Positions 9,165 through 34,020 of a stretch of 64,000 nucleotides of DNA are shown piece after piece. The first letter of the stretch is position 1. Every line of letters begins with the position of its first letter. Both the position numbers and the translations under genes were made by a program. A model generated the notes under the pieces. The model worked only from the letters and a program-made list of their open reading frames with translations, was not told the origin of the DNA and made no database searches. Source of the stretch: Gemmatimonadales bacterium (GTDB lineage: Bacteria; Gemmatimonadota; Gemmatimonadetes; Gemmatimonadales; GWC2-71-9); contig DASYQX010000073.1 of assembly GCA_036004985.1 (NCBI GenBank), positions 10,713 through 74,712 on the forward strand, read 5' to 3'.

Positions 9165-11414
9165 TTACAGCCGCATCTGTCGCAGGAGCGCCTGAAACCG
9201 CGGCTCGTCCCGGAGCGGATCGAGCATCGGATTCACGGCGAAGTACGCGAGCCACCCACGTCGTTCCGCGTGGGCCCGCTCCGCCCAGTCCAGCGCGCCG
9301 GACGCGTCGCCCAAGGCCAGGTGCAGCATCGCGAATGCCACGGGTGAAACGTAGTCGGTCCGCGCCGTGGCCTCGAGGTCGTGCAGGAGTGTCTCGGTCT
9401 CCTCTCGCTTCCCGGCGCCAGCGAGGAGCCATCCCAGCGTGGCGATCGTATACGCCGCTGCCCCGGGGAGCCCCAGCGCGTCGCGCACGACCCGCTCGGC
9501 CTCCGCGGCACGGCCCAGGTAGGCGAGGGCGGCTCCCAGCATGCGGTAGCTCTCTGCCGCCGTGGGGTTCATTTCGATGGCGCGGGTCAGGTGATAGCAC
9601 GCCTGGTCGTAGCGCCGTGCGTAGTAGTACAGCCACCCGACGCCGCGCCGAATGGAGACGGACCCTCCATCCAGCTCGAGCGCCGTATGTCCCTCGAGCA
9701 GTGCCTCCTCGTGCTTCCCCTGAGACGCCAGCAGGAACGCGAACCACTGGTGGGCCGTCGGATAGCGCGGGTCCAGCTCGATCGCGCGACGAAACTCGCG
9801 CTCCGCAGCGGCCCAGTCCCAATCATAGATGAACAAGCTCCAGGCGAGCGAGGCGTGCGCCTCCGCCAGCGTCTCGTCGAGCTGGAGCGCCTTGAGCGCG
9901 TACTCCTTCGCCCGCGCAAACCCCTCCGCGACCGGGACGCTTCGGTAGTCCAGCTGCAGCGCGTAGGAATCCGCGAGGCCGGCGTACGCCGGCGCGTAGC
10001 CGGGGTCCAGCGCGGCGGCCTGCTCGAACAGGCCAATCGCTTCGCTCGCCCCTTCGTACGTGCGTTTGTTCCACGTGTAGCGGCCCTTCAAGTACAGCCC
10101 GTACGCCTTGACGTTTTCGGTGTAGCGCCGGGGCACCGGCTCGGCAAGATCGGCGAACGAGGTAACGCGCAGCGTGCTCACGATCGTGCGCGCAATCTCG
10201 TCCTGGATCGCAAAGACGTCGTCGAGCTTTCGGTCGTAGCGCTGGGACCACAGCAGCCGGCCGTCGTCGGCGGAGGTGAGCTGGGCCGTGATGCGCAGGC
10301 GCTGGCCCGACCGGCGCACGGTGCCCTCGATGACGACCGCCGCGCCGAGCAGCGCGCCCACGGCGCGCACGTCCAGGGGCTTCCCTTTGAGCGCGAAGAC
10401 CGACGTCCGGGAGGACAGGCGGAGCCCGTCGACCTTGGCGAGGGCGTCGATCAACTCGTCGGTGATCCCGTCGCTCAAGTACTCATTGTCACGGTCGGGG
10501 CTGGCGTTGACGAACGGCAGGACGGCGACGGAGCGGGTCGCCGCGGGCGACGGGCGGGCGCCGCGGCCCTCGGCCTGGAGCGCCGCGAGGAATTCGGCGA
10601 CGCTGGTGAAGCGCTCGGCGGGGTCCTTGGCGAGCCCCCGGGCGAGCGCCTGCTCGACGGCGGCGGGGGCGTCCGGCCGCAGGGCGCGCACTGGGCGGGG
10701 GATTTCGGTCACGTGCTTCGCCATCGTCGCGCGCGCGCTGGCACCGCGCAGCGGCGGGTCGCCCGCCAGCATCTCGTATACGACACACGCGAGACTGTAG
10801 ACGTCGCTCGCGTTGCCGAGGTTCGACTCCCCGCTCGCCTGCTCCGGGCTCATGTATTCCGGAGTGCCGACGGCGATGCCGGCGTCGGTCACGACATCCA
10901 CCGGAGCCGCCATGCCCGGCTCGCAACAGGCGCGCGCGACGCCGAAATCGGCGAGCACTGCGTGCCCGTCCGCGAACAGGATGTTTTCGGGCTTCACATC
11001 GCGGTGCACGAAGCCGTTGCGGTGGGCGTAGTCGAGCCCCGCGCCGACCTCCTGCGCGATGCGCAGCGCGTCTTTCAGCGGAAGGCGTTGCTCCCGGTCG
11101 AGCCGCTCGCGCAGCGACCCGCCCGGGACGTGCGGCTGCACGTAGTAGAGCACGCCGTCGACCTCGCCCGAATCGATGAGCGGCACGATGTGCGGGTGGG
11201 AGAGCCGGGCGGCGATGCCGATCTCGCGCAGAAACCGCTCGGCGCCGAGCGAGGCGCTGAGATTGGGCCGCAGCACTTTGATCGCCACCTTGCGGCCGTG
11301 TTTCTTTTCTTGGGCGAGGTACACCGTCGCCATCCCGCCGTGGCCCAGCTCGCGTTCGACCGTGTAGCGGTCGGCGAGGGCGGCGATCAACGCGGCGCGG
11401 TCGCGACTGGCCAC
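9165..11414 (-). CDS. Ser/Thr protein kinase with C-terminal TPR repeats
   Basis: Hanks kinase motifs (HRDVKPENIL, DFG, SPEQ). A VLPFVN...DGITDELI middle domain is followed by multiple TPR-like repeats. Confidence 0.9.
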   Translation of the reverse strand: MASRDRAALIAALADRYTVERELGHGGMATVYLAQEKKHGRKVAIKVLRPNLSASLGAERFLREIGIAARLSHPHIVPLIDSGEVDGVLYYVQPHVPGGSLRERLDREQRLPLKDALRIAQEVGAGLDYAHRNGFVHRDVKPENILFADGHAVLADFGVARACCEPGMAAPVDVVTDAGIAVGTPEYMSPEQASGESNLGNASDVYSLACVVYEMLAGDPPLRGASARATMAKHVTEIPRPVRALRPDAPAAVEQALARGLAKDPAERFTSVAEFLAALQAEGRGARPSPAATRSVAVLPFVNASPDRDNEYLSDGITDELIDALAKVDGLRLSSRTSVFALKGKPLDVRAVGALLGAAVVIEGTVRRSGQRLRITAQLTSADDGRLLWSQRYDRKLDDVFAIQDEIARTIVSTLRVTSFADLAEPVPRRYTENVKAYGLYLKGRYTWNKRTYEGASEAIGLFEQAAALDPGYAPAYAGLADSYALQLDYRSVPVAEGFARAKEYALKALQLDETLAEAHASLAWSLFIYDWDWAAAEREFRRAIELDPRYPTAHQWFAFLLASQGKHEEALLEGHTALELDGGSVSIRRGVGWLYYYARRYDQACYHLTRAIEMNPTAAESYRMLGAALAYLGRAAEAERVVRDALGLPGAAAYTIATLGWLLAGAGKREETETLLHDLEATARTDYVSPVAFAMLHLALGDASGALDWAERAHAERRGWLAYFAVNPMLDPLRDEPRFQALLRQMRL

Positions 11415-11423
11415 ACCCGGCTC

Positions 11424-11873
11424 CTAGGGCCTGATGCCGCGCGCCAGCGCCGTCGCCGCGAACACCATCAACACGACGAGCCCCGTCTCGATGTCGCTGA
11501 TCAGCGCCATGCCACGGGCCGGGGCGGGATCGATGGCCTCGCCCTTGGCCGTGCGGGCCCGCCAGCGGACCAGGGTCACCATCGGCCAGACCTCGAGGGC
11601 GAGGATCAGCGCGAACAGCGTCATCTTGGCGTAGAACACCGGCTCCGCGAGGTAATACGCGCTTCCCTTCTCGAGGCCGGCGAACGCGCGAATCAGACCT
11701 GTGCCGATCCAGAGGGCGGCAGCGACGCCCCAGAGAGCGTCGGCGCGAAACACACGCCGCAGGCCCGATACGTCCAGGGTGCCGCGCAGCGCCCGCGCGC
11801 GTATGAAGACCGCGCCGAGGCCGATGGGAAGGGCGAGCAGGTGGAAGGCGGCGAAGAGCCAGCGGAGGGTCAT
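11424..11873 (-). CDS. DUF2214-like membrane protein
   Basis: MTLRWLFAAFHLLALPIGLGAVFIRARAL..., four TM helices. Confidence 0.7.
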   Translation of the reverse strand: MTLRWLFAAFHLLALPIGLGAVFIRARALRGTLDVSGLRRVFRADALWGVAAALWIGTGLIRAFAGLEKGSAYYLAEPVFYAKMTLFALILALEVWPMVTLVRWRARTAKGEAIDPAPARGMALISDIETGLVVLMVFAATALARGIRP

Positions 11874-18049: not shown

Positions 18050-18112
18050 GCCGCTGAATCTGCGTTGCGCAGAGCGGTGCGCAAACCGGAATGGGGCCGG
18101 GAGGGGCTAAAG

Positions 18113-18185
18113 CTGGGGCGGGAGGACTCGAACCTCCAACTTCCCGGTTAACAGCCGGGCGGTCTGCCAGTTGACCTACACCCCA
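18113..18185 (-). tRNA. tRNA-Asn (anticodon GTT)
   Basis: Hand-folded cloverleaf: acceptor TGGGGTG/CGCCCCA, D arm GGTC..GACC, anticodon arm CCCGG-CTGTTAA-CCGGG, T arm GGAGG-TTCGAGT-CCTCC, discriminator G. CCA is not encoded. Confidence 0.9.
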
Positions 18186-24397: not shown

Positions 24398-25072
24398 TCA
24401 GCTCAGCGTCTTCAGCACCAGCTTGCTGACCGCTTTCAGCGTGTCGAAGACGCCGTCTCCGCGGGTCGCCACGGCTTCGTGATAAGGGGCGCGGCCCACC
24501 CACTCGCCGCCCGTCTTCTCGATCAGGTTCTCTCCCGGGTGGCCCGGGTCGGGCGTCACCTTTTGCTGCGCCGCGTCTTCGATCGGCCAGCCGGGGTTGA
24601 GCGCCGCCTGCAGCTCCTTGATGGGAGCGGCGTTGGGGAGGTCGCGCTTGTTGTACTGGATCGTGAACGGAATCTTGGTCAGGTCGTACCCGTACTCGGC
24701 CATGTTGTCGTACAGGTTCTGCATCGACTCGACGTTCGCCTCCATCCGCTCGATCTGGCTGTCCGCCACGAACACGATGCCGTCCACACCCTTCAAGATC
24801 AGCTTGCGGCTGGCGTTGTAGTAGACCTGGCCGGGGACCGTGTACAGGTGGAACCGCGTCTTGAAGCCGCGGATCGTGCCGAGATCGACCGGAAGGAAGT
24901 CGAAGAACAGCGTGCGCTCCGTCTCGGTCGCGAGCGAGATCATCTTGCCGCGTGTATTGGGCGAGACCTTGCCGTAGATGTGCTCGAGATTGGTGGTCTT
25001 GCCGCCGAGACCGGGGCCGTAGTAGACCAACTTGCAGTTGATCTCGCGGGACGCGTAGTTGATCATCGACAT
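24398..25072 (-). CDS. mglA: MglA-type Ras-like small GTPase (with ~35-aa internal insertion)
   Basis: [20 protein letters not shown]-loop, [31 protein letters not shown]. Very close to Myxococcus MglA as I recall it. Confidence 0.9.
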
Positions 25073-25084
25073 GGGCGCGTCCCT

Positions 25085-25570
25085 CTAACCGAAGAGTTTG
25101 TCAATTTCGTCTTCCGCCCCTGCGAGCAAGCCCTTTTCCTGGCCCGGCCCGGCGCCCACACGATTGAACATCTCGGCGAAGACCTTGTTGAGGTTCTCGA
25201 CCGCGGCCTTGGCCTTGAGCTTCACGAGGCCGAGGGTGGCGCGCTGGTCGAAGAGCACGACCAGGATGACCCGCTTGGCGATGTCGGCGAGATACATCGA
25301 TTCCCGCTGGCCCTGATGGACCAGGGAGGCAAACTCGGGCTCGCCGATCATCTTGGCGAGCTGATCGTTGGCGCTGAAGTCGGCGGCGGTGAGCGAGGCA
25401 AATGCGGTGGGGTCGAACTGCGGGGTCTCGCCCACGGTGGCGACCAGTTGGCCGGTACGGTCGACGAGCAGGGCGCAGCGGGCGTTCGAATCCCGCAGGA
25501 ACGCCGAGAGGTATTGCTGGATCTGCTTGAAATCGCTCTCACTGAACGACCAGCTCGCCGCCCCCGCCAT
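25085..25570 (-). CDS. mglB: MglB-like Roadblock/LC7 domain protein (GTPase-activating partner)
   Basis: Roadblock/LC7-type sequence (ALLVDRTGQLVATVG...) immediately upstream of mglA. AGGAGG lies before the ATG. Confidence 0.85.
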   Translation of the reverse strand: MAGAASWSFSESDFKQIQQYLSAFLRDSNARCALLVDRTGQLVATVGETPQFDPTAFASLTAADFSANDQLAKMIGEPEFASLVHQGQRESMYLADIAKRVILVVLFDQRATLGLVKLKAKAAVENLNKVFAEMFNRVGAGPGQEKGLLAGAEDEIDKLFG

Positions 25571-28285: not shown

Positions 28286-28302
28286 GATGTTTTCAGTTGA
28301 AT

Positions 28303-28400
28303 GCCCCAGGCACCCCGCAGCGAATCCCGGCATCGCTTAGCGCTGCTCCCTGCGGGGGCCTGACGCGGTTCACGAGCGGAAAACCTGCGGACCTGGGGCG
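28303..28400 (-). ncRNA. ffs: signal recognition particle RNA (small bacterial SRP / 4.5S type)
   Basis: Minus strand contains CGUGAACCGCGUCAGGCCCCCGCAGGGAGCAGCGCUAAGCG (domain IV GUCAGG...AGCAGC core). Terminal helix GCCCCAGG/CCUGGGGC. Classic position upstream of dnaX. Ends are approximate. Confidence 0.75.
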
Positions 28401-28407
28401 CCGGAAA

Positions 28408-28425
28408 GATAGCCCCGGGGCCATC
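28408..28425 (-). terminator. possible hairpin terminator after the Ig-like gene
   Basis: Minus-strand GAUGGCC-CCGG-GGCUAUC stem-loop followed by UUUCC. The U tract is short. Confidence 0.25.
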
Positions 28426-28456
28426 GGGCTGCCAAGCGGTGAGGGGAGCTCCGAGG

Positions 28457-30022
28457 CTACCGCACCTGCACGACGTCCAGCATCACGGCGGCGCTGATGC
28501 CGGCGGTGGTGATCTTGAGGTTGGCGCGGCCGGGGCGCACGGACCTGAATGTGAGGACCACGGCCGCCTGTTCCTCTTCGGCGCTCAAGAGCCGGGCCAC
28601 CTGCAGCCGGGCGTCGAATTGCGCGCGGTTCTCCCACAACATGCGGGCCAGGTTTGCTACCGACGTGGGGTGGCCGTCGGCGTCCAGGGCCCGCAGCCGC
28701 ACGACGAAGGTCGTATCGAGCGCCACGATCACCCAGCGCCCGTCCACACGGAAGCCCTTGTGCTCCAAGACCAGCTCCACCGCCGGCCCGGGCTCGACCT
28801 GGAGCGTCACGCGCTTCTCGAGGGAGTCGATCGTCGCCACGACCGTGGCCGGGCCTACCCGCCCGCCGAGCGTGACTGTCACGCGCACCCGGCCGGCCGA
28901 GTCCGTCATCGCGGTGGCCGGCGACACGGCGGCGTTTGCGGCGCGGAACGTGACGACCCGCCCGACGGCGGGATGCCCGACTCTCGTGCGGGCTTCGAAT
29001 ACCAGAGGCTCCCCGAGGTCGTCGTGGACCGTGCCGCCCGGCGTCGGCGGCGTGAGGAAGCCCGTCCCCGCCTCGGACAACGGCATTCCGAGCAGGACGT
29101 CCACCCGCGCCAGGGGCTTCCCGCGGACCACGACCTGCAGGATGCCGCCGCGGCGGACCACGCTCCGCGCGACGGTGATGCGCGCACGCCCGAGTGAATC
29201 CGTGACGGCGGTGTCGGGGGGGATGCCCATGCCCTCCGTCCCGCTACGCAGCACCACGGGCTCGCCACCCACCGGGTAGCCGATGGAATCGCGGACCAGG
29301 ACGGCGACGGGCACGATGGAGTCGAGCCCGTGCTCGAAGAGGACCTCGCGCGGCTCGGCGGACACCGTCGCGGGCGGGCCGGGGCGCACGGCGAGCTCGA
29401 CGATCGGACGGCCCGGCAACGTCCCGCCCGCAGCGGGCGCGACTTCGAGACGGTACGTGCCGAGCCGCCGACCGACACTCAACGGGAAGAGCGCGAACCC
29501 GCTGTCGTCCGTGGCGACGACCACGTCGCGGCCCGACCGGCCGTCGATCGTCCCACTGCCCTTCAGCACGAGCTGCACGCCGGGCTGAGGCATGCCGCCC
29601 AATGCCGCGAGCACCACGACGCGCGCGCCGCTGCCGGCGGCGGCCACGATGCGCGGCTGGCGCACGACGACCTGCAGCGTGACCGGCGCGGGAGGAATGG
29701 CCACGGGCGCCGCCGCGGGCGCGGGGGCCGCCGCCGGCCGTCCGGCAACACATCCCGCGATGCTCGCCACGACATCCGAGGAGGCGCCCAGACCTCGGAT
29801 GTCCGCCCAGTCGCGGTCGGTCGGGCGGAACGCCAGGCAGTTGCGCCGGACCAAGTCGGCGGTCTCCTGGTTCCCAATCAGCGGGTTCGACAGCAGCTCA
29901 ATCAGATCGGCTTTGAGCAGCGGCGCGCCACGCTGTGCCGCAGCGGCCCCGGCCAGCGCCCCGAGGAGGAGCGCGGCGCGCGCCACGTGGCGCGTCATGG
30001 CGGCAACACCGGACGAGATCAT
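28457..30022 (-). CDS. secreted protein: N-terminal Cys-pair domain + Big_1-like Ig repeats (module copy A)
   Basis: Signal peptide MTRHVARAALLLGALAGAAAAQ (ATG 29998 is an alternative start). The LLKADLIELLS...LVRRNCLAFRPTDRD...IAGC domain is shared with 31457..32458. Repeated ...G.PV.G..V.F...TDS.GRA.V.V... Ig-like units follow. Confidence 0.8.
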   Translation of the reverse strand: MISSGVAAMTRHVARAALLLGALAGAAAAQRGAPLLKADLIELLSNPLIGNQETADLVRRNCLAFRPTDRDWADIRGLGASSDVVASIAGCVAGRPAAAPAPAAAPVAIPPAPVTLQVVVRQPRIVAAAGSGARVVVLAALGGMPQPGVQLVLKGSGTIDGRSGRDVVVATDDSGFALFPLSVGRRLGTYRLEVAPAAGGTLPGRPIVELAVRPGPPATVSAEPREVLFEHGLDSIVPVAVLVRDSIGYPVGGEPVVLRSGTEGMGIPPDTAVTDSLGRARITVARSVVRRGGILQVVVRGKPLARVDVLLGMPLSEAGTGFLTPPTPGGTVHDDLGEPLVFEARTRVGHPAVGRVVTFRAANAAVSPATAMTDSAGRVRVTVTLGGRVGPATVVATIDSLEKRVTLQVEPGPAVELVLEHKGFRVDGRWVIVALDTTFVVRLRALDADGHPTSVANLARMLWENRAQFDARLQVARLLSAEEEQAAVVLTFRSVRPGRANLKITTAGISAAVMLDVVQVR

Positions 30023-30026
30023 GGCC

Positions 30027-31250
30027 TCAGGGCCGGGGGCATCCCGAGCGCGCGAACCGCCGCTCGACCGTGCCGACGTCGGCGTACAACCGGCGATCGC
30101 GCACGGTCCGCGCGGAATCGAGCGTCGCGGGTGCGACCTTCCGGGCCGTGTTGTACGCAATCCAACGTCCATCGAGCTCGATCAAGCCGCGCGCCAGGTC
30201 GGAGCACACCATCTTGCGGCCGTCGAACAACCGCGCGCGCGTGTCGAACGCGGCGACCGCGAAGCCGAGCGTGTCGCCGAGACGATCGATCCGGTCCAAC
30301 GCGACGGCCGCGCTGAGCTGTGGCGCCCCCGGATCCGCCGCGTGACTCGACGGACCGGCCAACAGCCGATATCCGCCGAATAAGGCCCCCGCGGCCACGA
30401 TGCCCACGGCGCCGAGACCCGCCGCCCGACTGACCGGCTGAAGCGAGAACCGCCGGCGCACGGGCGCCGGAAGAGCGTCCGGATCGACCTCCGGTTCGGC
30501 TGGGAACAGGAACGGAGGTTGATCGAGGGCCGGCGGGGGTACGACGTCCGCGGAGGCGGCGATGCCGTGCGGGTGGTAGTTGGCCCATGCCAGGTGCACG
30601 ACCTCCTGCCCGTTGGGGAGGAGGGAAACGCGCTCCGGCAGTTCGTAGAACGGCAAGCACTCGGTCGAGCGCGCCGCGTCCGACCCGATGCGATACACGC
30701 CGCCCGTCACCTCCGCGCCCCCAGCGACGACCAAGGCGATCTGCCACGGCTGGTCGAAGCACGCGCGGTGCGCCTCCATGTCCGACACCGAGAGCCGGGC
30801 GTGCGGGGCGACGTGACTATGGTACCAGCCCAGCAGCTGGTCGCCGTTGCGCTGCGTTTCCTCCTGCGCGATCGCACGGCCCTGCAGCAGCGCCGACTCC
30901 AGATGGTCCCCGCCGATCGACCAGGGGATGTGGACCGTGGACTCGACCACGATGTACGGGGTCCGCGAGTCTGGAGACATGTAGACGCCACCCACGAGGA
31001 AGCCGAGCGACGAGGCGCCCTTCGGCTGCGCGGCGACCTGCGCGTGTACGGCTTCGAGGGCGCGCTGCGTGATGAAAATGGGACAGGCAGGGTCGGCGCC
31101 TAGCTGGCCGACCGGTCTCCAGAGGATCGCGTCCGCGGTCGGCATCGGCCGCTCACGGTAGTCGCCTGCGACAGCGGCGCGGGTGACACCGGAGAGCGGG
31201 ACCGCGTCGGCGACGCGGTACTTCGCAGGGCTGCCCCGGACGACGTCCAT
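30027..31250 (-). CDS. membrane-anchored JAMM/MPN+ domain protein (module copy A)
   Basis: GWYHSHVAPHARLSVSD is HxHx7Sx2D (30780-30821), with upstream LEAV Glu. Single TM (AAGLGAVGIVAAGALFGGY). C-terminal ~90-aa domain ends GCPRP. Paralog of 32443..34020. Alternative start ATG 31145. Confidence 0.8.
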   Translation of the reverse strand: MDVVRGSPAKYRVADAVPLSGVTRAAVAGDYRERPMPTADAILWRPVGQLGADPACPIFITQRALEAVHAQVAAQPKGASSLGFLVGGVYMSPDSRTPYIVVESTVHIPWSIGGDHLESALLQGRAIAQEETQRNGDQLLGWYHSHVAPHARLSVSDMEAHRACFDQPWQIALVVAGGAEVTGGVYRIGSDAARSTECLPFYELPERVSLLPNGQEVVHLAWANYHPHGIAASADVVPPPALDQPPFLFPAEPEVDPDALPAPVRRRFSLQPVSRAAGLGAVGIVAAGALFGGYRLLAGPSSHAADPGAPQLSAAVALDRIDRLGDTLGFAVAAFDTRARLFDGRKMVCSDLARGLIELDGRWIAYNTARKVAPATLDSARTVRDRRLYADVGTVERRFARSGCPRP

Positions 31251-31456
31251 CGCCCCACCGCACCGCAACTTCCTCGCCGCGGCAGGGTCGGCGCGCCCGG
31301 CTGCGCCCCCACAGGGATGCCCTGTGCGGCTACAGTAAGTGCATTGTCAGAGTGAGGTTAGAACCAGGGTGTCGCCCCGTTTTTACGGGCGCCAGGGACG
31401 CTCGTAGGCTGTCACGGGCGCATCAGGGCGCTCAACTGTTGCAGATGTGTTACACC

Positions 31457-32458
31457 TTAGGGGCAGTCCACCCTGCCCGGCGCGGCCCGCGGCGGCACCG
31501 TGACCGTCAGATAGTGGCGCAACCCGCTTCCGATGACAGCGAGGCTGGTCGTCCCGGGCTGATCGGGTTTCAAGGCGACCGTCCCGGCGAGACTGTCCTG
31601 CGCGATCCGCAGCACGCGAAAGATCCGGGCGTCGGCGACGGCGGCTCGCAGGCCGGTGAGCGAGGCGGCGTTGGCAAACGCATCCTGCGCCGTCACCCGC
31701 AGCACGACGACGGTGTCGGGACGCAGCACGACGCGTCCCGCGAGGCCCGTCGCCCCGCACCACACGACGAGCCGCGCGGCCGGGCCCGCGGTCACATTGA
31801 ACGCCACCTGCTTCTCGACGATGCCCACCGCGGCGATGACCGTCGCGGGGCCTGTGCGCTGGCCCAGGATCACCCCCACCCGCGCGTGCCCGTCTGCGTC
31901 GGTCGCGACCGTCGCGGGCTCGACCCGCGCGTTCACCCCGGAGAACTCCACAGTTTGTCCGGCGAGCGGCAGGCCCGCGGAATCCCGCGCCTCGAAGATG
32001 AGGGCCCGCGGCAGCTGCGCGCCGGCAGACCCGCTCTGTCCTCCGCCCGCGACGAACGCACTCCGCTCCGCGGACACGCGCCGGGTCGGCACGGACGGAG
32101 GCCGCGCGATGGACGAAGGGGCCGGGACCGGGAGGGGGGAGGGTGCCCGGGTGGGGACGGGGCCGGGAGCGGCGGGCGCCGACACCGGGGGTGGGGGCCG
32201 CCGTGCAGCCGCGGCACGGCGGCGCGCGCACGCATCCACAGCCGCCAGCACCGCCGGTTCCGCGCCCAGCCGGAGCAGGTCCTGACGATCCCGCTCCGTT
32301 GGGTCGAACGTCAGACAGTTCCGGCTCACGAGCTGGGCGACCTCTTGCTGCGTCATCGCGGAGCCGGAGAGCAGGCGCACCAGGTCGCTTTTCCGCAGTG
32401 GCGCGACGCCCTGCAAGACGCACAACAGTGCGAACAGTGCGATCACGGCCGAGGACAC
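31457..32458 (-). CDS. secreted protein: N-terminal Cys-pair domain + Big_1-like Ig repeats (module copy B)
   Basis: C-terminal 330 aa of the 752-aa track ORF. Hydrophobic N-terminus SSAVIALFALLCVLQG, then LRKSDLVRLLS...LVSRNCLTFDPTERD...VDAC and Ig-like units. GTG starts at 32458 or 32446 (GTGA overlap). Confidence 0.75.
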   Translation of the reverse strand: MSSAVIALFALLCVLQGVAPLRKSDLVRLLSGSAMTQQEVAQLVSRNCLTFDPTERDRQDLLRLGAEPAVLAAVDACARRRAAAARRPPPPVSAPAAPGPVPTRAPSPLPVPAPSSIARPPSVPTRRVSAERSAFVAGGGQSGSAGAQLPRALIFEARDSAGLPLAGQTVEFSGVNARVEPATVATDADGHARVGVILGQRTGPATVIAAVGIVEKQVAFNVTAGPAARLVVWCGATGLAGRVVLRPDTVVVLRVTAQDAFANAASLTGLRAAVADARIFRVLRIAQDSLAGTVALKPDQPGTTSLAVIGSGLRHYLTVTVPPRAAPGRVDCP

Positions 32459-34020
32459 CGTGACCGCTCGAACTGCCTTTCGACCGAGTCGACGCTGGCA
32501 TAGATCCGCCGGTCGCGCCCGGCGCGCTGCGGGTCGAGCGTTCCTACCACGTCCCGGCGCTGGACGTTGTAGACCTCCCAGAGGCGCTCGATCGCAACGA
32601 GCCCGCGCGCCAGCGCGGCGCAGTCGATCTGGCGATTCGCGAACAGGGCCGCGCGATCCTGATAGTTGCGGACCGCGCGGGACAGGGTGTCGCTCAGCCG
32701 GTCGAACCGAGCGAACGAGGCGTCGACGGGGCGCGGCGTGGGGGTGGGAGGTCGGGCCGGGCCGGCCGGGGTCACCGGCGTTTGCTGCAGCAGTGACCCG
32801 AGGCCGAACGGCAGGGGCTCGCCCGGTTGCCGCAAGAACACGTACCAGTAGCCCGCGGCGGCGCCGCCCGCGACGATGAGGAGGACAGCGAACACCGCCA
32901 GCCAGCGTCCGCGCCGCGACCGGCGCGGCGCCCGTTGCTCCAGCAGCCGGAACGACGGCGCTGGTGTGCGCCGCGGCTCGTGCTCCGGTGCGCCGCGCGG
33001 CGGCGTGGGACGCGGCGGCGGAGGCGGCGGGGCGGGCGGTTGCCGCTCCGGCGGAGCGATCGGCTCGAACCCCAACGGCAGCCCCTCGGGCGGGGTGTGC
33101 CGCACCGGTGCCGGCGGGGGGGGCGGGGGAGGCGCGGGGGGCGCGGGGGGCGCGGGGGGCGCGGGGGGCGCGGGGGCTGGCGGAGGCGCAGGCCTGTCGG
33201 GCACGAACACGGGCGCGGACGGCCTGGTCCTGGGCACGTGGTGTGCCGGCTCGTCGTCCGCGCTCGTCTTGATGATCGGCAGATCGTCCACCGGCGACGG
33301 CGGTCTGGGAGCCGGGGGAGAAGGAGCCGGAGGAGGAGGAGGCGGCGGCGGCGGGGGCGGAGCTGCGGCGGCCGGGGCGCGCTTCGGCGCGACGGGGTTG
33401 TAGGCTTTGTAGTTCTTCCACGTGATGAACGACCGCTTCTTGCCGTCGGCGCGGATCGAGTCGGGCTGCAGCAGCTCGTAGAAGGAGAGCGGTGTCTCGA
33501 CCCAGGCGGCGCTGGAGCCTGCGCGGAAGAACCCGCCGACGACGCCCTCCGGCTGCGCGGCGACCACCACGGCGACATGCCACGGATCGGTGAAGTACTT
33601 CGCGTGCGTCTCCACGTCGTGCGTCGACAGGCCGAGCGGCTGCCCCGGGTGGCTGTGATACCAGCCGAGCAGCCGTCCTGCGGCGCGGGCGAGCTGCTCC
33701 TGCATCCGGTCCCACAGCCGCGCGACCACGACCTCGGTCTTGTCACCGTAGATCGCCTGGTTCAGGCGGAGCGTCTTGTCGATCACCGCGTACAGCGCCC
33801 CCGTCTCCGGGTCGCGCCAGACGTCGCCGACGAGGAACCCGAAGATGGCCTGCTGCGGCGACGCTTTGAGATGGTCCTGCAGCGCCACCACCGCCTCTTG
33901 CTGGAAGAAGATCGGGTACGGCGCCCGCCCGGAGTGTCGCGATCCCTGGCTCGTCGGGTTCCAGAGGATCGCGCGGGCCATGGGCATCGGCTGCGGGCGC
34001 GCCTCGAGCTTGGCCGTCAT
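32443..34020 (-). CDS. membrane-anchored JAMM/MPN+ domain protein with long Pro-rich linker (module copy B)
   Basis: GWYHSHPGQPLGLSTHD is HxHx7Sx2D (33616-33657), with upstream QEAV Glu. ~145-aa Pro-rich linker, TM (WLAVFAVLLIVAGGAAAGYWYVFL), C-terminal domain ends RCPRP. ATG 34020 overlaps the ltaE stop (ATGA). Confidence 0.8.
   Translation of the reverse strand: MTAKLEARPQPMPMARAILWNPTSQGSRHSGRAPYPIFFQQEAVVALQDHLKASPQQAIFGFLVGDVWRDPETGALYAVIDKTLRLNQAIYGDKTEVVVARLWDRMQEQLARAAGRLLGWYHSHPGQPLGLSTHDVETHAKYFTDPWHVAVVVAAQPEGVVGGFFRAGSSAAWVETPLSFYELLQPDSIRADGKKRSFITWKNYKAYNPVAPKRAPAAAAPPPPPPPPPPPAPSPPAPRPPSPVDDLPIIKTSADDEPAHHVPRTRPSAPVFVPDRPAPPPAPAPPAPPAPPAPPAPPPPPPPAPVRHTPPEGLPLGFEPIAPPERQPPAPPPPPPRPTPPRGAPEHEPRRTPAPSFRLLEQRAPRRSRRGRWLAVFAVLLIVAGGAAAGYWYVFLRQPGEPLPFGLGSLLQQTPVTPAGPARPPTPTPRPVDASFARFDRLSDTLSRAVRNYQDRAALFANRQIDCAALARGLVAIERLWEVYNVQRRDVVGTLDPQRAGRDRRIYASVDSVERQFERSRCPRP
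33133..33177. repeat. 9-nt tandem repeat CGCGGGGGG x5 (encodes (PAP)n on the minus strand)
   Basis: C positions recur at 33133/35, 33142/44, 33151/53, 33160/62 and 33169/71. Lies within the Pro-rich linker of the JAMM-B gene. Confidence 0.8.

Follow-up and report, generated by a model that had tools for sequence, protein, structure and literature searches.

Tandem gene pairs encoding a predicted membrane-tethered MPN protein and an Ig-repeat partner in Gemmatimonadota

Introduction

Known MPN/JAMM domains are either soluble isopeptidases or scaffolds within large cytosolic complexes, and they usually dimerize. MPN+ enzymes are defined by the signature E-x(n)-H-x-H-x7-S-xx-D. In these enzymes, the glutamate deprotonates the zinc-bound water, and MPN- proteins serve as scaffolds that partner with a second MPN protein (PMC9313428). 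The classic survey of JAB systems in prokaryotes does not mention a membrane-anchored JAB protein (PMC1779556). Here, we analyze two adjacent gene pairs, termed A and B, from a Gemmatimonadales bacterium. They lie in a stretch of 64,000 nucleotides (assembly GCA_036004985.1, contig DASYQX010000073.1, positions 10,713 to 74,712), which we call the window. Each pair encodes an MPN protein with a predicted transmembrane (TM) helix and a secreted partner with immunoglobulin-like (Ig) repeats.

We judge the chances to be about even that these genes specify an envelope-spanning pair specific to Gemmatimonadota. In this pair, the C-terminal domain of the MPN protein (CPRP, named for its invariant ending) would dock the N-terminal domain of the Ig protein (IgN), and the cytoplasmic MPN domain would be a zinc-site-bearing pseudo-isopeptidase scaffold.

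Results

Two paralogous gene pairs

The sequence-only reading of the window had placed four open reading frames in this region, and all four are present, on the minus strand, as are all parts of the module described below. Pair B comprises the B-MPN gene (32443..34020, 525 aa) and the B-Ig gene (31457..32458, 333 aa, with a GTG start). Pair A comprises the A-MPN gene (30027..31250, 407 aa) and the A-Ig gene (28457..30022, 521 aa). Within each pair, the second gene overlaps the first or follows it by no more than 4 nt, as had been claimed. B-Ig starts inside the end of B-MPN, with an overlap of 16 nt that includes the stop, and A-Ig starts 4 nt past the A-MPN stop. The gap between B-Ig and A-MPN measures 206 nt.

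According to BLASTP, the two MPN proteins are 38% identical over 203 aa (E 4e-36), and their last 88 aa are 51% identical (E 3e-24). For the two Ig proteins, identity amounts to 38% over 170 aa (E 2e-23) and to 51% within a 59-aa N-domain (E 4e-15). Identities of 38-51% in both gene types bear out the proposed paralogy of the pairs, the duplication of the whole two-gene module in tandem and its later divergence. Orthologs of A-MPN, at 60-65% identity, have a start with MD in common.

The MPN domains lack the general-base glutamate

The N-terminal domains of the first proteins had been read as MPN domains, and several lines of evidence agree. B-MPN scores 33 bits against Pfam JAB (PF01398), above the cut-off of 22.5 bits, and A-MPN reaches only 15.9-17.6 bits, below this cut-off. 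Further matches are weak and remain below the family cut-offs (PF14464, Prok-JAB, with 17.6-18 bits, and the NCBIfam desampylase model with about 13 bits). A profile built from 54 family members matches archaeal CsRpn11 (6FJV, E 6e-7) and yeast Rpn11 (E 5e-5) in the PDB. In an AlphaFold2 model of B-MPN, the predicted local distance difference test (pLDDT) score exceeds 90 at residues 1-210, which make up the MPN domain (33391..34020). A Foldseek search of the PDB with this model retrieves BRCC36, Rpn11, CSN5 and CsRpn11 at E values of 1e-8 to 1e-7. The domain in A (30546..31163) is assigned through its 38% identity to B. The fold is thus that of the MPN/JAB superfamily.

The JAMM motif had been described as complete, which is correct for the HxH-x7-S-xx-D part but not for the general base. 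The residues of this part (H144, H146, S154 and D157 in A-MPN; H122, H124, S132 and D135 in B-MPN) align with the zinc ligands and the oxyanion residue of the Rpn11 motif. In HMMER alignments with Rpn11 and CsRpn11, which have high posterior probabilities over this segment, the catalytic glutamate (E48 of Rpn11, in PM-E-VMGLMLG; R-E-VAGLLVG in CsRpn11) falls on Ala58 in B (QQ-A-IFGFLVG) and on Ser80 in A (AS-S-LGFLVG), and serine is also the family consensus at this position. It is preceded by Gln57 in B and by Ala79 in A. Hence, a general-base glutamate at the start of strand beta2 is found in neither A nor B. The '(L/Q)EAV' stretch that had been taken for the conserved upstream glutamate belongs to helix alpha1, is shifted by three residues in one copy relative to the other, and has D, A or E in relatives. 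Judged on their residues, A and B thus do not display the glutamate that the definition of MPN+ enzymes calls for. The earlier description of an apparently active JAMM protein does not hold up, since the general-base glutamate is missing from both copies and, as shown below, the zinc ligands are dispensable across the family.

Topology and the CPRP domain

In B-MPN, the MPN domain is followed by a Pro-rich spacer, a TM helix and the CPRP domain. A-MPN has the same order of elements, with a short spacer. The B spacer (32926..33390) consists of 43% proline over 160 aa and is predicted to be disordered (pLDDT <50). AlphaFold2 places a helix at residues 369-396, with a TM core at residues 374-392 (32845..32901). 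The C-terminal CPRP domain (32446..32730) is modeled as a three-helix bundle at residues 434-520, with a pLDDT of about 96. In A, the TM segment spans residues 273-291 (30378..30434) and is followed by the CPRP domain (30030..30314). Composition and model thus confirm the spacer, single TM helix and conserved C-terminal domain of the sequence-only reading. Its membrane tether is likewise upheld by the single helix with Arg-rich N-flanks in both proteins (RRSRRGR in B, RRR in A).

No signal peptide was found in the MPN proteins, and the Arg clusters precede the TM helix. These features point to an N-in topology, with the MPN domain and the spacer in the cytoplasm and the CPRP domain in the periplasm. 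B-MPN has just two cysteine residues, C467 and C522. Both are located in the CPRP domain and are invariant in the family (C349 and C404 in A). The invariant pair fits a periplasmic disulfide. PDB profile searches with CPRP and with IgN returned nothing real; designed helical repeats, with zero passing stretches, were the only hits.

On the presumed cytoplasmic side, a short conserved motif precedes the TM helix. Its family consensus is (L/I)(L/I)FPDE, and its counterparts are FLFPAEPE in the short spacer of A (30450..30480 of the window) and VFVPDRP in B (residues ~277-283). The motif is common to CPRP proteins with and without an MPN domain, and may be a docking motif.

The Ig-repeat partner and the IgN domain

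The partner proteins consist of a signal peptide, the IgN domain of about 65 aa, a Pro/Ala linker and beta-sandwich repeats. This order of domains had been anticipated, but the anticipated repeat numbers (4-5 in A, 2-3 in B) were slightly too high. In A-Ig, three Big_1-like repeats at residues 136-223, 238-300 and 332-425 are followed by a C-terminal beta domain. B-Ig contains one such repeat and the same C-terminal beta domain. Against Big_1 (PF02369, cut-off 34.9 bits), A-Ig scores 50.3 bits, and B-Ig stays below the cut-off with 27.8 bits. Pfam does not match an intimin/invasin outer-membrane beta-barrel or a LysM domain in the Ig proteins, and their sequences do not exhibit a beta-barrel, lipobox, sortase, PEP-CTERM or type IX secretion system (T9SS) signal. 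The labels 'adhesin-like' for the partner and 'specificity-determining' for the system are speculation.

No part of the partner is as conserved across 48 loci as IgN, which contains two invariant cysteine residues (C48 and C77 in B, where the domain spans 32207..32416; C62 and C91 in A, where it spans 29738-29938). AlphaFold2 models it as four short helices with a pLDDT of 89. Relatives of IgN were not found by Foldseek against the PDB (best E 2.5), in Pfam or by a profile search of the PDB. A search of an index of 5.8 billion proteins with the IgN profile found only short fragments at contig ends, which are uninformative on architecture.

CPRP and IgN are the linked elements

Related loci were collected and labeled with L-numbers. 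We searched them with hidden Markov models of the MPN, CPRP and IgN domains and counted CPRP genes with enough downstream DNA. The next gene encodes IgN in 46 of 58 cases, at a median distance of 46 nt. A second, independent set was gathered by means of a degenerate DNA pattern that captures the core of IgN, and in it all IgN genes (52/52) have a CPRP gene immediately upstream. The exceptions run in one direction only, as there are CPRP/MPN genes without IgN, and not the reverse. The neighborhood survey that had been suggested as a check on the pairing thus comes out in favor of co-occurrence.

The CPRP profile finds 429 clusters at E <= 1e-3 among 1.84 billion representatives, always with the domain at the extreme C-terminus. 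About 60 of the best 150 of the 429 clusters have an MPN domain. Many of the other proteins among these best 150 are only 150-280 aa long. Some are fragments, and others are genuine short forms with a cytoplasmic tail that carries the (L/I)(L/I)FPDE motif, a TM helix and the CPRP domain, but no MPN domain. At least one MPN-less CPRP gene (L100) is followed by an IgN gene, which suggests that CPRP and IgN together make up the conserved functional unit. The MPN domain would then be a frequent, but not an obligatory, cytoplasmic head. The sequence-only reading was therefore right in pairing the two proteins, but the invariant link is from CPRP to IgN, and not from JAMM to Ig.

Genomes may contain several paralogs of the module. 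In L052 (2530..7124), three tandem CPRP genes precede one IgN-Ig gene. The MPN domain is absent from two of the three, and one of these two has an Arg-rich N-terminus with 'DRR' repeats. The same metagenome-assembled genome (MAG) holds a further module on another contig (L088). In a single C-type sub-clade (see below), genes for type IV pilin-like proteins, recognized by a GFTLIELL prepilin motif and Pfam N_methyl, are found 1-2 kb downstream of the gene for the Ig partner (L082 at ~7835, L084 at ~5921, L151 at 9737..11490). A type IV pilin link was rejected as a general feature, because it is confined to these three loci of one sub-clade.

Metal sites are lost in parts of the family

Among 87 A-type homologs, about three quarters have HSH at the metal site, and about a quarter lack at least one of the histidine residues. 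The variants are HSL, HSQ, HSM, HSR, RSC, RCH and QTH, and further RGS, RGG, RGR, RGE, RTH and HSA. Recovery of loci through the CPRP motif is unbiased for HxH, and in this set at least one histidine is missing from 10 of 18 MPN domains.

Clustering of 91 MPN domains resulted in four main groups. The B-type group (n=46) has Q-A at the glutamate site and nearly invariant HxH and S/T..D. In the A-type group (n=10), A/S-S is found at the glutamate site, and histidine has been lost in three members. The C-type group (n=9) has replaced HxH by RG, RE or RR and D by E in all members, and all nine keep CPRP and the IgN partner. Since C-type, histidine-less and MPN-less members keep the module, catalysis does not appear to be needed for it. 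Judging from these sequences, the module survives complete loss of the metal site. The copies in the window would then stand midway in this loss, as they retain the metal site but no longer have the base.

Basal MPN-CPRP proteins (L039-L067; clusters 1 and 2) carry the sequence R-E-x-R-F-G-F-L-L-G and have asparagine in place of an otherwise invariant histidine, four residues after the aspartate. In L051 (4666..7206), two MPN domains precede a single TM helix and CPRP domain within one stop-to-stop frame, which can be read as a tandem-MPN fusion or as two adjacent genes in the same frame.

Taxonomic range and prior annotation

In three scans of 185,579 GTDB species genomes, based on the MPN motif, on the CPRP motif and on a DNA pattern for IgN, the architecture came from Gemmatimonadota MAGs only, apart from one 2.2-kb contig that is otherwise labeled. 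Outside Gemmatimonadota, bare MPN domains alone were matched. Cultured strains with the module were not among the hits of the three scans, which consist of MAGs only. A single-sequence pattern search for related loci with A-MPN gave 599 pattern matches and no relative.

The homologs are named 'hypothetical protein' or, by the Joint Genome Institute (JGI), 'proteasome lid subunit RPN8/RPN11'. The latter label, given to several homologs, overstates what is known. Searches of Pfam, NCBIfam, PADLOC and the literature did not uncover a family of this layout, in agreement with the claim that none had been described.

Genomic setting

The stop of a threonine-aldolase-like gene directly abuts the B-MPN start. 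The module is flanked by fba-ytxH-yihY-ltaE on one side and by ffs-dnaX-ybaB-recR on the other. This housekeeping block is syntenic in other MAGs, and the metagenomic contig L001 carries both pairs at this place. The locus is therefore a core locus and not a mobile one. A mobile or defense island was considered and rejected in view of the flat GC content across the window (~70%), the syntenic housekeeping flanks and the absence of defense-system matches in PADLOC. Genes for ubiquitin-like (Ubl) proteins, E1, E2 or CD-NTases were not found within +/-10 kb of the syntenic locus L001 or of the non-syntenic loci examined. The statement that no Ubl, E1 or E2 gene is nearby was thus accurate.

Between the A-Ig stop and dnaX lies a bacterial small signal recognition particle (SRP) RNA (28300..28399, minus strand; Rfam RF00169, 44.3 bits), a placement that makes up the classical ffs-dnaX-ybaB-recR block. 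The sole sigma-70-like site of the region (28435..28406, minus strand) is located just upstream of this RNA and was assigned to it. A promoter and terminator scan of the region did not detect a terminator. After recR, the minus strand encodes a Roadblock/LC7 (MglB-like) protein and a small Ras/Arf-like (MglA-like) GTPase (24398..25570), an arrangement that is kept in L001 and L152. The only tRNA of the window is a tRNA-Asn (GTT) at 18112..18185 on the minus strand.

Discussion

If the genes work as we propose, each pair would give rise to a two-protein assembly that spans the inner membrane. The first protein would be bitopic, with a cytoplasmic MPN domain on a Pro-rich tether, a TM helix and a disulfide-stabilized CPRP domain in the periplasm. 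The second protein would be translationally coupled to the first and exported via its signal peptide. Its disulfide-bonded four-helix IgN domain is predicted to dock onto CPRP, so that the Ig repeats would be held at the inner membrane and reach out into the periplasm or envelope. The MPN domain, with its metal site kept and its base absent, would be non-catalytic or at best very weakly active, and would serve as a binding and scaffolding module. MPN domains may dimerize, A with B where both exist, in the way of MPN+/MPN- subunits in eukaryotes. Through the MPN domain, a partner in the cytoplasm would be connected to the Ig protein in the periplasm, for the purpose of anchoring or of transmembrane signaling. 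From their residues, the MPN domains without the catalytic glutamate are probably binding scaffolds and not active proteases.

Several observations weigh against this proposal. In the B-type group, HxH, S/T and D hardly vary, and this also holds for an IgN-anchored set of loci that were found without the HxH motif (14 of 14 with the pattern 'QA|HH|TDH'). Some function of the metal site is therefore under selection, and it could be catalytic, with an unconventional base. Some other acidic residue may reach the metal site and serve as the alternative base. In the basal clades (n=13), the residue just ahead of the canonical position is a conserved Glu or Asp, and HSH and S/T..D are kept alongside it. 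The basal members may be still-active enzymes, and the ancestral role of the domain may have been proteolytic. Finally, at least eight genes of the B-type lack a neighboring Ig gene and are directly followed by dnaX, and in a Gemmatimonadales MAG (L152, 6032..9131) both MPN-TM-CPRP genes are partnerless and lie between ltaE and dnaX. Such genes imply that the MPN protein can stand alone.

The main rival explanation builds on some of these points. It holds that the MPN protein is an active membrane-tethered JAMM metalloprotease, which would use a non-canonical base to cleave a cytoplasmic substrate (a C-terminal tail or an isopeptide) under periplasmic control through CPRP and the Ig protein. 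The HxH-x7-S/T-xx-D motif is intact in both window copies and hardly varies in the B-type clade, the nearest relatives in sequence and structure (Rpn11, BRCC36, CSN5 and CsRpn11) are catalytic MPN+ proteins, and a conserved glutamate adjoins the canonical site in the basal clades. We nevertheless consider such an enzyme unlikely. The canonical glutamate is replaced by Ala in B and Ser in A, where Gln and Ala precede it, and members that have lost zinc ligands keep the whole module. Moreover, the examined loci have no linked Ubl, E1, E2 or obvious substrate gene, and A-MPN falls short of the Pfam JAB threshold. It would be a long shot that A and B form a membrane-tethered MPN-MPN heterodimer, in which (iso)peptidase activity or substrate capture at the metal site is switched from the periplasm via CPRP and IgN, independently of Ubl proteins. 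If true, this would be a new type of JAMM-based transmembrane signaling, and a bacterial counterpart of Rpn11-Rpn8 or BRCC36-Abraxas.

Two other roles are possible. The pair could signal in the manner of an anti-sigma factor, with the Ig protein and CPRP sensing an envelope cue, the MPN domain sequestering or releasing a regulator, and the FPDE motif docking. A bitopic layout with conserved domains on either side of the membrane would suit this function, as would the cytoplasmic motif common to MPN-bearing and MPN-less CPRP proteins, the multiple paralogs per genome and the response-regulator genes near some non-syntenic loci. We regard this role as decidedly unlikely, because a sigma factor or other regulator is not consistently linked, and because the main locus is embedded among housekeeping genes. 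To our knowledge, MPN domains also do not act as regulator-sequestering modules in bacteria. Alternatively, the Ig protein could be the functional product, with a part in adhesion or matrix, and the sole task of the MPN-TM-CPRP protein would be to hold it back or pass it on at the inner membrane. The Big_1/invasin-like repeats, their different number in the two paralogs and the pilin-like genes downstream in a few C-type loci are in keeping with such a helper. This possibility seems slim, as the Ig proteins lack the anchoring and export signals that were looked for (beta-barrel, lipobox, sortase, PEP-CTERM, T9SS) and IgN is far more conserved than the repeats. In addition, the large conserved cytoplasmic MPN domain would be left unexplained, and the pilin linkage is limited to one sub-clade.

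The locus presents a eukaryote-like MPN domain on a membrane tether, genetically wired to periplasmic domains and an Ig protein, at a conserved site in the core genome of a soil phylum that has been little studied. It is a lineage-restricted new architecture on a known fold, with two unclassified domains, CPRP and IgN. If the CPRP-IgN contact and the scaffold role are true, the pair would be a new envelope-spanning module, and CPRP and IgN two new domain families. The finding also corrects the impression of a complete JAMM motif. If our reading is right, the family would offer a natural series that possibly leads from a complete JAMM site through loss of the glutamate to loss of the zinc ligands, and this would be useful for studies on the origin of JAMM pseudoenzymes.

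Among the described systems, the MPN+ isopeptidases Rpn11, CSN5 and BRCC36 (PF01398; CsRpn11, 6FJV) are closest. They provide the best matches in sequence and structure, and share the MPN fold and the HxH-x7-S-xx-D zinc signature with both window copies. In contrast to these enzymes, the window copies have Ala58 and Ser80 instead of the general-base glutamate, are TM-tethered with an extra periplasmic domain, have no Ubl substrate system, and belong to a family that tolerates the loss of zinc ligands. The MPN- scaffolds (Rpn8, CSN6, Abraxas/Abro1) resemble the window copies in having the fold without the full catalytic equipment. They pair with a second MPN protein, and the window has genes for two diverged MPN paralogs next to each other. 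Unlike typical MPN- proteins, the window copies keep all three zinc ligands, and are bacterial and membrane-bound. The prokaryotic JAB proteins (Mec+/CysO, MoaD-processing enzymes, the HvJAMM desampylase, CBASS Cap3, the N-domain of lambda gpK) are also bacterial or archaeal MPN domains. They are soluble proteins with a complete JAMM motif, and their genes are linked to Ubl/E1-like, tail or cyclase genes, none of which applies to the window system.

On the partner side, Big_1-like beta-sandwich repeats are shared with intimin and invasin (PF02369, PF09134). The window partners differ from these in that they lack a LysM/beta-barrel anchor and have the CPRP-linked four-helix IgN domain instead. 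In layout, the MPN proteins are reminiscent of ZipA-type bitopic tethers, in which a globular cytoplasmic domain is likewise connected by a long Pro-rich tether to a single TM anchor. There is no homology to ZipA, from which the window proteins differ in orientation, domains, and the presence of a periplasmic module with a partner.

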